Below are positions 37,293-41,447 of a stretch of 64,000 bases of DNA, piece after piece. Both the position numbers and the translations under genes were made by a program. A model generated the notes under the pieces. That model was not told the DNA's origin, made no database searches, and was given only the letters and a program-made list of their open reading frames with translations. Position 1 is the stretch's first letter; each line of letters opens with the position of its first letter. The stretch is taken from contig CBDAOI010000002.1 of NCBI GenBank assembly GCA_965198005.1, positions 160,001-224,000 of the forward strand. The letters are read 5' to 3'. Source of the DNA: Spirochaetia bacterium. Lineage in GTDB: Bacteria; Spirochaetota; Spirochaetia; SZUA-6; Bin103.

Positions 37293-37509
37293 CCGCACGC
37301 CGCAGTGTGCGCGATTCGCCGGAGCCGGGCCAAGTGCCCCAAGTGCCCGTGCTAGCGTAAGTTGCGCACTTTCAAGGACGATGTAGCGAGATTTGCCGGT
37401 CGCACAGATGAACGGAGGCCCCTGAGGGCGAGAGATTCTACCGGGGGACGAGTTTTTCCCCATGTAGTGATAAAGAGCATGGTAAGCAGTTTCTTGGTGC
37501 AGAAATATC

Positions 37510-37538
37510 TTGACCGCTCTCGCCCCCGTTGCTATCTT
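37510..37538 (+). promoter_or_regulatory. Putative sigma70 promoter of the IS1634 transposase
   Basis: TTGACC-17 nt-TATCTT with TG extension, 8 nt before GTG 37547. Confidence 0.6.
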
Positions 37539-37829
37539 GTGCGTGCGTGTTCATCGGTCAGCTCAAAGTCTCCCGCAACGGCCGCTCCTACACCTACCAC
37601 CGCCTCCTGCAGTCGGTACGCACCGATAACGGCCCCCGGCAGCGACTCATCCTGAGCCTCGGCACCCTCACGCTCCCCAAGTCCGAGTGGCCGCGCTTGG
37701 CCGAACGCATCCACGACAATGTCAACGTCACAAGCCCCGGGACCAAGCTCCTAAATCGGGTTTCTTACATGACCACGCCGGGCCCCGCCCGGTGGGAAGC
37801 TCCTAAGAAACAACAGTCAGGCACGACAG

Positions 37830-39245
37830 TCAGGCAGCCTCCGGGACAAGCACATAACCGAGGGCCCGAGCTTGGTTGCGGACGCGGCGTTCGAGGCGTC
37901 GCAGGTCTTGGCGTTCCTGGGCGGCGAGGATGCTGTCGTCGTACGCAACGCGATGGGTAACGAGATGGTAGATGATGCGCGCCAGTTTGTGGGCAGTCGC
38001 CGTGATCGCCTCGGGAGTACCCAGGCGCGCGCGCATCCGGCGGAAGTACTGGCCGAGGGACGAGGGGCTGCGGTACAAGCACTGGGTAGCCCAGCGTAGC
38101 GCCTGAGCAGCGCGATTGGTGCCGGGTCCGGTGTGTGCGCTGATGATCCTGCCGCCGGTGATCTGGTTGTTGGGACACAGGTTCAGCCAGGATGCGAATT
38201 GCCCCGCAGTCGGGAAGCGTGACAGGTCGGGGCCAAACTCGGTGAACAGGATCAGTGCAGTGCTTTCGCCGATGCCGGGAATGAGCGTCAGGTCGGTGCC
38301 GAACAGGCGCGCAAGGTGCGCCTTCAGGTTGAACGGCTTGGGCGGTGACTCGGTTGGCGTCGGCGGCGCATCGGCGGTCTCCTCCGCAGGGTCCTCCGCA
38401 GGGTCCTCCGCAGGGTCCTCCGCAGGGTCCTCCGCCGGCGCGCTCGGCGGCTCGTTCGTGGATTCGAACGAGCGGATGCGAGCTTCGATTTCCTGATCAC
38501 ACTCCGCGATGAGCTGTTGGTAGTGGGCATAGGTGGCACGCGCGTGACGCAGTGTAAACAGATGCTCGGAGCGCCAGTCACCTTCCAGCGCTGCAATCAG
38601 GGTGGCGCGGCTGGCTTTGATCCGCCGGTCGGCCAGATCGGCCAAGCGTGCTGGATCCCGCTCTCCGTTCAGGATGGCCTCGGTGATAGCCATCCCCGTG
38701 ACCCCGGTCAGGTCAGAGATGGCGTGGTGCAGATGGACGTTCATCTGGTCGTACGCCTTCTGCATGTGCAACACGCTCCGTGAGGCGGTCTTGATCAAGT
38801 TGTCGCGATGGCGCAGCAGGGCGCGCATCGCACAGACTTCGTCAGCGGGCCGGAACGAACCGCGCAGCAGGCCCACGGAGTGCAGGTAGCGCAGCCACTC
38901 GCAGTCGGCCACGTCGGACTTGCGTCCGGGGACCGAGTGCACGTGACGCGCGTTGACCAGCACCACGTCGAAGCCATGCGCCTCCAGGATCTGGTGCACC
39001 GGGATCCAGTAGACCCCGGTCGACTCCATCGCCACAGTGGTTACCTGGCATTCCTTGAGCCAGTTGGCCAAAGCGTGCAGGTCGCCAGTAAAGGTGGGAA
39101 AGTTCCGGATCGGGTCCGGGTCGCGATCAGGGCGCACCGCCGCGTACACCGCCGTGGCGCCCACGTCCAAGCCCGCGGCGTCGGGATGGACGGTATTCGG
39201 TTGCGCTGAACGACTGCCTTTGCCTTTACGGCTGCGTCGTGCCAT
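37830..39245 (-). CDS. IS110-family DEDD recombinase/transposase
   Basis: GLDVG, AMESTGVYW, VNA, GRKSDVAD, IPGIG, FASWLNLCP, AITATAHKLARIIY; GGAGGA RBS. Confidence 0.95.
   Translation of the reverse strand: MARRSRKGKGSRSAQPNTVHPDAAGLDVGATAVYAAVRPDRDPDPIRNFPTFTGDLHALANWLKECQVTTVAMESTGVYWIPVHQILEAHGFDVVLVNARHVHSVPGRKSDVADCEWLRYLHSVGLLRGSFRPADEVCAMRALLRHRDNLIKTASRSVLHMQKAYDQMNVHLHHAISDLTGVTGMAITEAILNGERDPARLADLADRRIKASRATLIAALEGDWRSEHLFTLRHARATYAHYQQLIAECDQEIEARIRSFESTNEPPSAPAEDPAEDPAEDPAEDPAEETADAPPTPTESPPKPFNLKAHLARLFGTDLTLIPGIGESTALILFTEFGPDLSRFPTAGQFASWLNLCPNNQITGGRIISAHTGPGTNRAAQALRWATQCLYRSPSSLGQYFRRMRARLGTPEAITATAHKLARIIYHLVTHRVAYDDSILAAQERQDLRRLERRVRNQARALGYVLVPEAA
38380..38435 (+). repeat. 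12-bp in-frame tandem repeat (TCCTCCGCAGGG)x4.7 encoding PAED repeats
   Basis: Direct reading; protein reads PAEDPAEDPAEDPAEDPAEE. Confidence 0.95.
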
Positions 39246-39269
39246 GAGAATCCTCCGCTATGGACTGAG

Positions 39270-39445
39270 TGGGGCGGCCAAGGCGTGAGTAGCAGGTATT
39301 CTCCTAAACGGGATGATCGCCACCCAGCAGCGCCAAGCGAAGACCTCACCAATGACTACGCCACCCGCCCTGGGACCAAGCTCCTGAACGGGTTCGCCCC
39401 GCAGGGCGTAACACCAATGACGCGACGGCCTACTTTCGCGCCCCT
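39270..39445 (-). ncRNA. Putative IS110 bridge RNA A (two guide loops)
   Basis: Two modules on the minus strand: GTCAT-TGGTG-stem-CCCGT-TCAGGAG and GTCAT-TGGTG-stem-CCCGT-TTAGGAG, directly upstream of the recombinase; boundaries approximate. Confidence 0.8.
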
Positions 39446-39523
39446 ACCCAGAGATTTGCACCCATAATAGCGCTCGCCACAGTTTCTTACATGACCACGC
39501 CGGGCCCCGCCCGGTGGGAAGCT

Positions 39524-39761
39524 TCTGAGAAACAAACAAGTCAGGAATGAGCGTTCAAGGAACTGAATGGCTGTCTGGTGGCGCCCTGCTGTCCTCCTGC
39601 GTGATGGGTGGATGGCGCGGCGGGGCGTGAACGACAGGTATTCTTCTGAACGGGATGATCGCGACCGGACGATGCCAGTCCGCGATCTCACCAATGTCAA
39701 CGTCACAAGCCCCGGGACCAAGCTCCTAGTCGGGTTCGCGCCCAGCAGGGCGTCACACCAA
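39524..39761 (-). mobile_element. Recombinase-less IS110 sister element B with its own bridge-RNA-like region, truncated
   Basis: End TCTGAGAAACAAACAAGTCAGG parallels A end CCTAAGAAACAACAGTCAGG; 39620-39761 is homologous to 39280-39417; RBS-like AGGAGG on the minus strand but no recombinase ORF. Confidence 0.78.
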
Positions 39762-40752
39762 CGGAGTTGGCAGCGCGCGAGCGGGAGCTGTTCACGCTGC
39801 AAGAAACCATCATCCTGTACGACTTGAGTTCGACTTACTTCGAAGGCCTCGCGGCCAACAACGAGAAGGCGGCGCGGGGGTACTCGCGGGATCATCGACC
39901 GGACCGCAAGCAAGTAGTGGTCGGTCTGGTGCTGGATGGCGAGGGCTTTCCCAAGGCGCACGAGGTGTTCAAGGGCAACACCAAAGACGAGACCACCATG
40001 GCGCGGATGCTCGACAGCCTGGACCGCCGGATCAGTGTTCGGAGCGGGGCGGGGCGACGGTGGTAATGGACCGTGGCTTGGCGACGGACGAGAACCTGGC
40101 AGTGCTGCGCAAGCGCGGTCAGCACTATATCGTGACCACTGAACAGAGCCAGCGGCGTGAGCTGTTTCCCGAGATTGACAGTTCCGGATACGTGCCGGTG
40201 AAAGTGAACAGGAAGGGGAAAATCGTCGTCTCAGGCCAACTGCGGCGGCATCAGGGTGAGCTGTACGTGTTGTGTTACAGTGAGGCGCGGGCGGCCAAGG
40301 ATCGTGCGATACGGGAACGGTTCGCACACCTATTCGAACGGGAGTATTGTGGCTGGTATTGAGCGGTCCGTCAAATGTGGTAAAATGCGAACGCCCCCTG
40401 TGCGGGGGCGTCCACACTCTACCTGCCGCTGAGCAGGAGCCGGAGGCAGTGATTGTCTCCGGCTGCTTCGTCAACGGCGAAGGAGTCTTCTGTGGGGCAA
40501 CGCAAGCCTACCCTTCTCGACTATTTCCGCCCGAATCCTGCCGCGTGCATCTGTGGAGCGGAGTTTGATCGGCAATGCCCGGTCAACGTCACTCTCATGG
40601 ATCGCTACAGAGGTCCGGTGCAGGGCCTATTCTCGGTGGCTCAGAAGCATGGGATCACGACAGAGGAAGTGCGGGAGCACCTAACCCGCCTTCCACCTGC
40701 CCGCGTCAACTACGAGGCTTAACGCCTACGGGGCGCCTGCCCCTCCCAACCT

Positions 40753-41447
40753 TCAGATCCGCTTACGCTCCATCCCCTGGACCACCATCCGCATCTGGAC
40801 CTCGGTGTTGTCGTAGGGACGCTGGTTGTGGCGGCCGGCGAACTCGTTCACGTAGCGTTGCAGGTGGGCCGGGCTCATCCGGTGGTAGGTGCCATAGTAG
40901 CCCCGCTTCATCATGGTCCAGAACGATTCCAGACCGTTGGTGTGCGCCTGCCCTTCACGTACTCGCCCAGCCCGTGGTTGACCGATGTGTGGTTCGGCAG
41001 CCCCTTGTACGACGCACTCTAATCGGTGTACACGTCCGCCTCCTGGCACCACGGCTGCGCTGATCTGGCGGGAAGCGTGGTCGCGCGCGCCCGCCACGGT
41101 GGACTTGCCGGCGGTGCCGCGGCCGCGGTTCGTCCGCTTGGAGACGTGCTTGTTCTTCTCCTTGCCGCCGCAGTAGGACTCGTCCAGCTCGACCGGCCCC
41201 CTCACAGGACTGGTCGCCCGCCTGATAGTCCCAAGCCTCACGGATGCGGTGCGCGAGATGCCAAGCGGTTTTCTGGGTCACGCCGAGATCGCGATGCAGC
41301 TTCATGCTGGAGGTGCCCTTGATCCCGGTGGTCAGCAGATAGACGCCCAACGCCCAGGTCTGCATCCCAAGGTTGGGCCTCCTGCATGACGCTCCCGTTC
41401 TTGACCGAGCAGTCGTTGCGACAGGAGCGACAGACACGGCGGATCAA
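40753..41447 (-). pseudogene. IS1595 (ISXO2-like) transposase, multiply frameshifted
   Basis: KGTSSMKLHRDLGVTQKTAWHLAHRIRE, VELDESYCGGK, HTNGLESFW..MKRG..GTYH..S..HLQRYVNEF. Confidence 0.9.

Follow-up and report, generated by a model that had tools for sequence, protein, structure and literature searches.

A bridge-RNA transposon subfamily in which both donor guides match the same strand of the element junction

Element A, found within a window of 64,000 nucleotides of Spirochaetia DNA, is an IS110-family bridge-RNA transposon with two internal loops, a CT core and a handshake dinucleotide. Its donor loop departs from the arrangement of two guides on a contiguous site. The 3' guide fits contiguous pairing across right end, core and left end and the 5' guide does not; the latter has the same sequence, in the same sense, as a stretch of the left end that lies 20-30 nt within the element, just before the subterminal inverted repeat. 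Both donor guides thus match the CT-bearing strand and would pair with one and the same strand. We propose that the donor junction is read as a fold-back of this strand and that the target is read as duplex DNA, a model to which we give about an even chance.

Element A and its bridge RNA

A sequence-only reading of this DNA had suggested an IS110 bridge-RNA system, and each motif it named lies where it was placed. The family assignment is borne out by the transposase, which has an N-terminal DEDD/RuvC-like domain (PF01548, E 1.2e-18, residues 24-168) and a C-terminal Tnp domain (PF02371, E 2e-9) that aligns with residues 201-321 of IS621. The IS621 enzyme is the sole solved relative of the 471-aa protein, and only a distant one (E 5.7e-7). 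The serine of its YESG motif aligns with a threonine in the window copy (ITGG), relatives having either serine or threonine; we take the aligned residue to be the catalytic S241 only on the assumption of a two-residue offset in chain numbering.

The boundaries of the element (Table 1) are fixed in part by copies elsewhere in the genome. A 320-bp copy of the right end, 100% identical, lies at C2:733623, and ten mini-copies of 56 nt retain precisely the stretch from repeat to repeat, the minimal unit. The AG complementary to the CT core is invariant in both 3' guide strands of all 13 aligned RNAs, and in multi-copy families the copies diverge immediately past the core dinucleotide.

The two-loop RNA is supported by a consensus structure built from 13 relatives, in which 9 of 23 pairs show compensatory changes; in a distant clade, 13 of 19 pairs do so. 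Three G-U or U-G pairs are invariant in 13/13 sequences, which identifies the RNA strand as that of the transposase. In every element found, the RNA lies upstream of the transposase gene. On the plus strand its motifs read CTCCTAA (39301), ATGACTA (39352), CTCCTGA (39381) and ATGACGCGA (39417). An Rfam search with the bridge RNA returned no family, its sole match being a chance miRNA (E 0.65). Folded as a single sequence, the RNA of A gives no informative structure (z 0.34) and that of element B, described below, reaches z -2.55. RNAalifold predicted, in Bacteroidota, that the donor-loop strands pair with each other; this was set aside as it is not retained in other clades when these are inspected by eye.

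Element A stands in tandem with two decayed relatives, B and C, within an IS1634-like transposase gene of which about 445 bp are absent between the 5' part and position 39762. Element B is a mini-element devoid of transposase and truncated in its target-loop 5' guide; a complete 343-bp copy of it is present elsewhere (G000 C3, L082), as is a decayed copy on C2 (L081). Element C is a fragment that retains the target-loop 3' guide AUUUAGGAG, the 3' strand of P1, the linker and the donor-loop 5' guide, with a weak covariance-model match over it (37669-37820, 20.1 bits). The target guide of C equals the right end plus core of A. Each target loop is programmed against the right end and core of another element, which accounts for the three head-to-tail elements in the window and, more generally, for tandem arrays and for mini-elements reduced to a guide RNA.

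Table 1. Window coordinates of element A, its bridge RNA and the neighbouring elements
Feature	Position	Strand	Basis or remark
IS1634-like transposase gene, 5' part, broken	37345..37716	+	95.6% identical to intact copy, G000 C2:239103-239483
Element C, third element, truncated bridge-RNA fragment	37717..37759	-	37717-37753 identical to 39692-39728
Orphan left-end copy, 40 nt	37760..37799	-	Subterminal repeat, ATGAC site, GC hairpin, GGGAAG
Core dinucleotide CT (AG on transposase strand), right junction of A	37800..37801	.	AG invariant; copies diverge after core
Element A, full-length IS110-family, 1720 bp	37802..39521	-	Ends from 56-nt mini-copies, guide matches, right-end copy
Right-end subterminal inverted repeat (STIR-L), GTTTCTTA on minus strand	37804..37811	-	8 bp
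Transposase / bridge recombinase, 471 aa	37830..39245	-	PF01548 + PF02371
Bridge RNA core, target loop then donor loop	39297..39432	-	Covariance model R1, 111.2 bits
Donor-loop 3' guide, RNA UUUAGGAG	39301..39308	-	Right end + core; 8-nt exact match to ...TTTAGGAG
Donor-loop 5' guide, RNA GGCGUAGUCAU	39352..39362	-	10/12 identical, same sense, to left-end 39491-39501
Target-loop 3' guide, RNA UUCAGGAG, then handshake CU	39381..39388	-	Equals mini-copy flank TCAGGAG
Target-loop 5' guide, RNA UCGCGUCAU	39417..39425	-	Family-wide, -9 to -4 complementary to right flank +1 to +6
Left end of A, first 40 nt	39482..39521	-	STIR-R, guide-like site, hairpin, GAAG
STIR-R	39482-39489	-	Within left end of A
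Guide-like site	39491-39501	-	Within left end of A
Left-end hairpin	39498-39516	-	Fold of identical copy, shifted by 1722 nt, and stem search
GAAG	39518-39521	-	Within left end of A
Core CT, left junction of A, within CTTCT	39522..39523	.	Motif positions
Element B, transposase-less mini-element, right end + own bridge RNA	39524..39762	-	Model match 39639-39774, 80.6 bits
IS1634-like gene, 3' part	39762..40343	+	98.1% identical to C2:239921-240503

Target recognition across the subfamily

In the bridge-RNA systems of the IS110 group, including IS621 (PMC11208160; PMC11208158), the RNA is found upstream of the gene, its target loop precedes its donor loop, and the core is CT. The 5' strand of the IS621 target loop pairs with one DNA strand left of the core, its 3' strand pairs with the other strand over the core and to the right, and a handshake dinucleotide follows the core-pairing bases. 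Element A resembles IS621, so described, in its DEDD and Tnp recombinase, its upstream RNA, the order of its loops, its CT core, its handshake and a target read on two strands. It differs in that its RNA and gene lie opposite to the CT-bearing strand and in that the long exact guide, of 8 nt, is the 3' one. The opposite orientation of the exact guide had been noted in the sequence-only reading, and its pairing partner is indeed the antisense strand of the recombinase gene, which puts the element in an inverted frame compared with IS621.

The guides were compared with their flanks at 80 genome loci and 80 metagenome loci, 67 and 79 bridge RNAs, respectively, being examined. The subfamily is widespread, being seen in Spirochaetia and Bacteroidota records, in MAGs of Proteobacteria and Chloroflexota and in many metagenome contigs. 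Upstream, 39/67 genome and 40/79 metagenome RNAs have an exact match that is 7 nt or longer and ends in AG; on the right-end side the counts are 59/67 and 62/79, and many of the misses are cut contigs. The 3' strand of the target loop reproduces the left flank together with the core (the left flank of element A itself, TCAGAAG, is off its target guide at 1 of 7 positions), and the 5' strand is complementary to the opposite strand adjoining the core. When the reverse complement of 5'-guide positions -9 to -4 was set against right-flank positions +1 to +6, the mean agreement was 2.68 of 6, compared with 1.60 +/- 0.15 in permutations (p<5e-5), and at least four positions agreed at 14 of 50 sites; natural flanks match this guide only in part. 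The replication set gave a mean of 2.43 vs 1.55 (p<5e-5), with at least four of six at 16/58 sites. In 63 of 85 elements, against a permutation mean of 12, the handshake dinucleotide coincides with the two nucleotides that open the left end; in element A it is CU.

As judged from these alignments of guide and flank, the target loop, like that of IS621, reads both strands of a contiguous duplex site. This divides the earlier suggestion that the guides do without a contiguous duplex site: the donor loop is indeed non-canonical, but the target loop is not. ATGACGCGA at 39417, taken earlier for a second reader of the hairpin, is the target guide, and the lack of an ATGAC arm at the target, which had seemed to weigh against the proposal, is explained by the contiguous reading of that site.

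A proposed donor site in two parts on one strand

The stretch 37760-37811 had been described as the end junction of the element. Its right end and core are those of A, but it also includes an orphan left-end copy and is not simply the end: these 52 nt are a donor-type junction in which the CT core lies between the orphan left end, of 40 nt, and the opening 10 nt of the right end of A, an arrangement that matches a circle junction in form. The orphan copy shares with 39482-39521 the blocks GTTTCTTA, ATGACCACGCC, CCGGGC, GCCCGG and GGGAAG at equal spacing; besides this repetition of the 40-nt unit there are 10 more copies of at least 45 nt elsewhere in the genome. Within the junction, 36 nt separate GTTTCTTA at 37760 from TAAGAAAC at 37804-37811 and enclose the inner stem arms CCGGGC (37778) and GCCCGG (37787), and ATGAC (37769) and CTCCTAA (37800) lie on the same strand about 30 nt apart. 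The window holds 184 pairs of perfect 8-bp inverted repeats with spacers of 3-52 nt, so that the repeat alone is not rare; the unit as a whole, however, forms a repeat family. Folded as DNA, the plus strand of 37752-37820 yields -12.6 kcal/mol (z -2.2, with 4 of 200 shuffles as good), and the predicted fold leaves ATGAC and the CT core unpaired within one internal loop. Public runs, available as contigs in which a circle junction is indistinguishable from a genomic tandem junction, contain one joint, linking 37811 to 39480 through 5 additional letters (run X13), which looks like a tandem mini-copy locus.

The donor 5' guide of element A does not match the adjoining GGGAAG and is complementary to the same-strand ATGAC, as the sequence-only reading had it. 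The covariation that it proposed to test, of this guide with an ATGAC-type arm, holds across the subfamily. In 14 lineages, comparison of the guide with the left-end 12-mer ending 0-4 nt before the repeat gave 93 same-sense matches against an expectation of 72.7 +/- 4.9 (p 1e-4). In 39 new guide cores, agreement was 6.51 of 12 with the guide's own element vs 4.98 with other elements (z 9.0), and the longest runs averaged 4.51 vs 2.53 (z 11.8). Agreement of at least 4 of 6 at the canonical place next to the core occurred in 0/36 and 0/39 elements, and the reverse-complement and canonical-position controls stayed at background. The guides themselves vary widely between lineages (GTCAT, TTGGCAT, TCACACC, GCCATACA, TCACTGGC, GTTCTCG and GTTTC/GTTTT/GTTTA). 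The match is brief, about 5 nt at its core, and it fails in some elements (4/12 in L053, L017 and L016, 5/12 in L037); runs of at least 5 occur in only 16 of the 39 replication cores.

It could be argued that the same-sense match is non-functional and arises from shared descent or base composition. Relatives do have both segments in common, and a scan over all offsets and both senses was rejected, as one large clade dominates it and the permuted maximum equals the observed one. The result obtained with lineages collapsed, its recurrence in the independent cores and the background level of both controls nevertheless make this explanation very improbable.

An alternative that accepts a function is that the identity does not reflect guide-DNA pairing. 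The two segments might be bound by one and the same protein surface, the left-end copy might serve within a 5' leader RNA to mimic the donor loop or compete with it, or the left-end segment might be a promoter element; the donor would then be recognised through the 3' guide together with protein contacts to the repeats. Half-match recognition has been reported for IS621 (10.64898/2026.08.31.748434). In the window clade, moreover, the identity extends over 10 of 12 nt, beyond the 5-nt guide, and reaches into the RNA basal stem and an arm of the DNA hairpin, which could reflect duplication or mimicry at the RNA level. A contig from an RNA library spans 39127-39523, up to the left-end boundary, so the left-end segment may be transcribed, though RNA ends, strand and level are not readable from contigs. 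A promoter box or protein site, however, would be expected to be conserved, whereas this segment changes together with the guide across unrelated sequences; beyond one clade the shared stretch shrinks to about 5 nt, at loop positions -9 to -5, which are those of the target-loop guide; and an RNA copy of the same sense is unable to pair with the guide. On balance we consider recognition other than by pairing rather unlikely, and infer that the 5' guide pairs with DNA at the distal site. By eye, that site sits where the -35 box of a conserved TATTAT/TATAGT/TATACT-like motif would fall.

Proposed fold-back of the junction and its implications

The CT-bearing strand, which pairs with the 3' strands of both loops, is antisense to the RNA and the transposase gene. 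In the fold-back model the donor site would be split, the 3' guide pairing with CT and right end and the 5' guide with the same strand 20-30 nt off, just inside the left-end subterminal repeat, usually with a short hairpin between the two sites. One strand of the junction of right and left ends would fold back on the repeats of 5-11 bp; an excised single-strand circle might supply it, a cruciform being a less likely source. In the internal loop so formed, each side would be complementary to its own guide, and together they would take the place of the two strands of the melted duplex read by IS621, the target being read as ordinary duplex DNA. We infer this folding from the geometry of the junction. 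Subterminal repeats of 5-10 bp accompany 50/67 genome bridge RNAs and repeats of 5-11 bp accompany 44/79 metagenome ones, the left-end repeat lying 29-46 nt in (median 33-34). Hairpins of unrelated sequence occupy a common place in 22/30 and 28/44 elements and lie away from it in 8/30 and 16/44. RNAalifold gave no consensus on the left ends, as MAFFT failed to align the variable hairpins, and a per-sequence stem search was used instead. A coupling in length between the sides of the internal loop was not retained as evidence, since a longer repeat shortens both sides and the two are not independent. The earlier idea that the internal segment inverts found no counterpart, as no locus contains an inverted form and inversion would not bring CT beside the guide-matched bases.

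The same covariation would be expected if the 5' guide paired with its distal antisense site in duplex DNA and the recombinase dimer looped or bent the 20-25 bp between, with neither fold-back nor a single-strand intermediate. IS621 insertion complexes are reported to bend DNA to a U shape (PMC13626964). Fold energies agree with such looping in being weak in AT-rich lineages (-0.3 to -6 kcal/mol) and free of strand bias: the strand expected to fold is stabler than its complement in 15 of 30 cases (Wilcoxon p 0.90). A loop, however, has no need of a hairpin that is conserved in position through unrelated sequences; the subterminal repeats bracket the whole region; and if both guides bound one strand of an intact duplex, the other strand would be displaced over a long stretch. 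We regard duplex looping as unlikely.

Other IS110-type elements offer partial parallels to the fold-back model. The IS1111 group and seekRNA elements such as ISEc11 also have clear subterminal inverted repeats near both ends and RNA-guided target choice (PMC11187229). Their repeats, however, are of 11-13 bp (the criterion of 7-17 bp overlaps only partly with the 5-11 bp seen here, 8 bp in element A), their terminal extensions are of only 7 and 3 bp compared with 29-46 nt on the left here, and their RNA region is downstream of the gene, unlike that of the present elements. In IS621, as described, the repeats are of 2-3 bp and enclose about 14 nt, whereas here they enclose about 45, and in the present subfamily, unlike in IS621, the donor 5' guide matches the strand of the 3' guide 20-30 nt off. 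For ISPpu10, a DNA stem-loop beside the guide-paired bases, conserved more in structure than in sequence, has been proposed as a recognition layer (10.64898/2026.03.19.712850); in that account it belongs to the target, a REP sequence, and both guides read adjacent bases, whereas here it is in the donor and parts the guide sites. A literature search for IS110 elements with a hairpin, single-stranded or cruciform donor found no such donor described, the supplementary tables of the covariation papers, which possibly hold related cases, lying outside its scope.

Integron attC sites and the ends of IS200/IS605 elements are used as one folded strand with imperfect inverted repeats and unpaired bases that confer specificity. 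The former are read by the protein IntI, the latter through DNA-DNA pairing within the end (TnpA), and neither involves a two-loop guide RNA. The proposed donor would resemble them in being a recombination substrate made of one folded strand, the enzymes being unrelated. Whether the natural donor of bridge recombinases is a double- or a single-stranded circle is disputed in the field. Two preprints report that excision or insertion by IS621 and CazIS110 involves mainly the top strand, in single-stranded form (10.64898/2026.08.31.748434; 10.1101/2025.10.25.684509), and in this subfamily the top-equivalent strand carries both donor guide sites. One could envision, as a possible though doubtful extension, that the mobile form of the subfamily is a single-stranded circle made of the antisense strand of its genes, whose junction adopts an attC-like stem, both donor guides pairing within its symmetric internal loop. 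Insertion would in that case transfer one strand, with replication completing the process, and the donor loop may have evolved to solve the problem that a single-strand circle poses for two-strand guides of the IS621 type.

Bridge recombinases are under development as programmable genome editors, and the split donor site suggests a design rule for them, namely single-stranded or hairpin donors with a split, pre-melted site. A natural subfamily with both donor guides complementary to one strand would permit a direct and cheap test of the dispute over the donor. The correspondences between guides and flanking DNA also show that the handshake guide and the two-strand reading of the target are conserved far from IS621.

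Element boundaries and the B-A-C array

The sequence-only reading described 37760-37811 as the end junction, which could fold into a hairpin. This stretch is a junction rather than a unit, where an orphan left end abuts the right end of A, the full-length IS110-family element. The 40-nt stretch 37760-37799 has a second copy at 39482-39521 and ten more elsewhere in the host genome (G000; the window is contig C2:160001-224000). All ten genome copies have the form flank-CTCCT, AAGAAACAACAG + TTTCTTACATGACC...GGTGGGAAG, CTCCT-flank, with 12 nt of a right end fused to about the first 40 nt of a left end. Because the mini-copies join right end to left end, they fix the bounds of A, identify the 40-nt stretch as an orphan left end and mark B, a decayed relative, as a separate element. 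They retain precisely the repeat-to-repeat region, and a second left-end copy, in decayed form, follows two of the ten.

Features of the array and genomic mini-copies
Feature	Position	Strand	Remarks
Transposase	37830-39245	minus	471 aa; IS110 domains PF01548 (E 1.2e-18) and PF02371 (E 2e-9)
Element A, full	37802-39521	minus	bounded by CT at 37800-37801 and 39522-39523
Orphan left end of mostly deleted third element (C)	37760-37799		40 nt, second copy at 39482-39521
RNA fragment of third element (C)	37717-37759		
Element B, without transposase	39524-39762		right end and own bridge RNA; right of A
56-nt mini-copies	G000 C1:33691, C2:26549, C2:177297, C2:364976, C2:733623, C3:151577, C4:852081, C4:1123760, C4:1426404, C4:2390415		CTCCT on both sides of each

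Read in transposase orientation, the elements B - A - C follow one another head to tail and share their cores; all of them lie within an IS1634-like gene from which about 445 bp are missing. The gene halves lie at 37345-37716 and 39762-40343; an intact copy (G000 C2:239103-240503) carries CTTCT immediately after the position of the left break. A complete 343-bp copy of B is present on contig C3 (L082:861-1203) and a decayed one on C2 (L081:818-1110), which makes three copies in the genome; such mini-elements (~343 bp) lack a transposase but retain the two ends together with an entire bridge RNA. On the minus strand at 40753-41437, overlapping open frames appear to resemble another frameshifted transposase gene, of a different family.

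The only solved relative of the A transposase is that of IS621, a distant one (E 5.7e-7). Around residues 355-365 (NNQITGGR) a Thr aligns with the serine of the IS621 YESG motif; in relatives (loci L006-L080) this residue is Ser or Thr (I[ST]GGK). Thr would be an unusual residue for what is presumably the nucleophile position. Four tandem 12-nt repeats (38379-38430) encode PAED x4 in the linker between the two domains.

The bridge RNA and its guides at the core

We used 80 genome loci (set 1) and, as independent replication, 80 metagenome loci (set 2), where a covariance model of the RNA matched 57 and 80 places, respectively; Rfam holds no corresponding family. The consensus of thirteen relatives shows two internal loops, UGG(U)G/CCCG closing each of them, and compensatory changes in 9 of 23 pairs. 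Three G-U or U-G pairs occur unchanged in 13/13 sequences, and the RNA is therefore transcribed in the transposase sense. RNA-library contigs span A at 39127-39523, and in two RNA libraries B-type contigs reach about 10x the depth of the A RNA region; contig data of this sort do not prove transcription, nor do they give ends or strand. Downstream of the left-end repeat, at a distance of ~25 nt, a -10-like hexamer (TATTAT, TATAGT, TATACT, TATAAT) recurs (39440-39470; upstream regions of L001, L007 and L027); the corresponding -35 would share positions with the distal guide-like site.

The 3' strands of both loops have the form N6-AG-N2. That of the target loop equals the left flank plus AG in the same sense (exact over at least 7 nt in 39/67 and 40/79 RNAs), and that of the donor loop equals the right end plus AG (59/67 and 62/79); many RNAs lacking a 3'-guide match sit on cut contigs. 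As these matches are same-sense, both 3' strands pair with the gene's antisense strand, where the core is CT. By RNA geometry this is the top strand in the IS621 frame and the element is inverted in that frame, just as the sequence-only reading had it; the motifs on which it relied are likewise all in place.

Right next to the core, the opposite strand is complementary to target-loop 5' positions -9 to -4, with a mean match of 2.68/6 in set 1 (permutations 1.60, p<5e-5; at least 4/6 at 14/50 sites) and 2.43 in set 2 (1.55; 16/58 sites). This partial match is in line with the half-match insertions reported for IS621 (preprint 10.64898/2026.08.31.748434). In 63/85 elements (permutation mean 12) the left end begins with the same two bases that follow AG in the target loop, which is the feature described as the handshake guide of IS621 (PMC11208158).

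Target loops are often directed at the right end and core of another IS110 element. The C target guide AUUUAGGAG is identical to the right end of A with its core, and the A target guide UUCAGGAG is one base off the corresponding stretch of B. L019 (RNAs at 63-172 and 1892-2001) and L082 are likewise directed, and the pattern recurs in L018, L024, L118, L132, L144, L163 and L165, which, like L019, carry two RNAs on one strand. Such programming accounts for the head-to-tail arrays.

A probable split donor site

The target-loop rule would place the donor 5' guide at left end +1 to +6, where a match of at least 4/6 occurs in 0/36 and 0/39 elements. The guide corresponds to a same-sense left-end 12-mer that stops 0-4 nt short of the subterminal repeat of that end (10/12 identical in the window clade); the RNA is therefore complementary to the antisense strand, the one read by the 3' guide. 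Chance is a very improbable source of this identity: 14 collapsed lineages give 93 matches against 72.7 +/- 4.9 (p 1e-4), and 39 new guide cores score 6.51 on their own element versus 4.98 on others (z 9.0), with longest runs at z 11.8 and runs of at least 5 in 16/39 own elements versus 4.7% of foreign pairs. Loop positions -9 to -5, which also serve as the guide in the target loop, show the highest identity. Some elements lack the distal match or the hairpin, and in one clade the distal identity exceeds the length a guide requires; that the identity serves another role is rather unlikely.

At the right end the subterminal repeat (5-11 bp) is 2-5 nt away from the core, and that of the left end sits 29-46 nt inside (median 33-34). 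A hairpin of 4-6 bp, fixed in place and unrelated in sequence, separates the core from the distal site in 22/30 and 28/44 elements; in the second set, stems of at least 5 bp occur in 27/44 elements versus 17% of shuffles. Folded on the repeats, the antisense strand is predicted to set a core side (mean 13.8 nt) against a distal-site side (mean 11.7 nt) in one internal loop; ViennaRNA with DNA parameters predicts such a fold for the window junction (-12.6 kcal/mol, z -2.2). Fold predictions are weak for AT-rich lineages, and stability shows no strand bias (15/30). In this fold the 5' guide would pair with the arm replacing the bottom strand, left of the core, and the 3' guide with the core and right side, reproducing the IS621 arrangement (5' guide on left/bottom strand, 3' guide on core and right). 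A dyad-symmetric reading of duplex DNA does not fit, since at the distal site it would need the opposite strand.

Recognition of the donor in the form of a folded single strand is about evenly probable; the same pairing on looped duplex DNA seems unlikely. The bridge-RNA identity and the observation behind the sequence-only reading stand, and its interpretation is supported only in part. For IS621 and a Caloranaerobacter IS110, two preprints describe one strand, the top, as mainly excised or transferred (10.64898/2026.08.31.748434; 10.1101/2025.10.25.684509). A single-strand circle would lack the partner of an IS621-type left donor guide; unlike in IS621, both donor guides here have partners on the top-equivalent strand. 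Another preprint describes a stem-loop of conserved structure in the target of ISPpu10 (10.64898/2026.03.19.712850). Our literature searches, supplementary data apart, turned up no split, same-strand donor site. The element is an IS110 bridge-RNA member with a new donor-site architecture.
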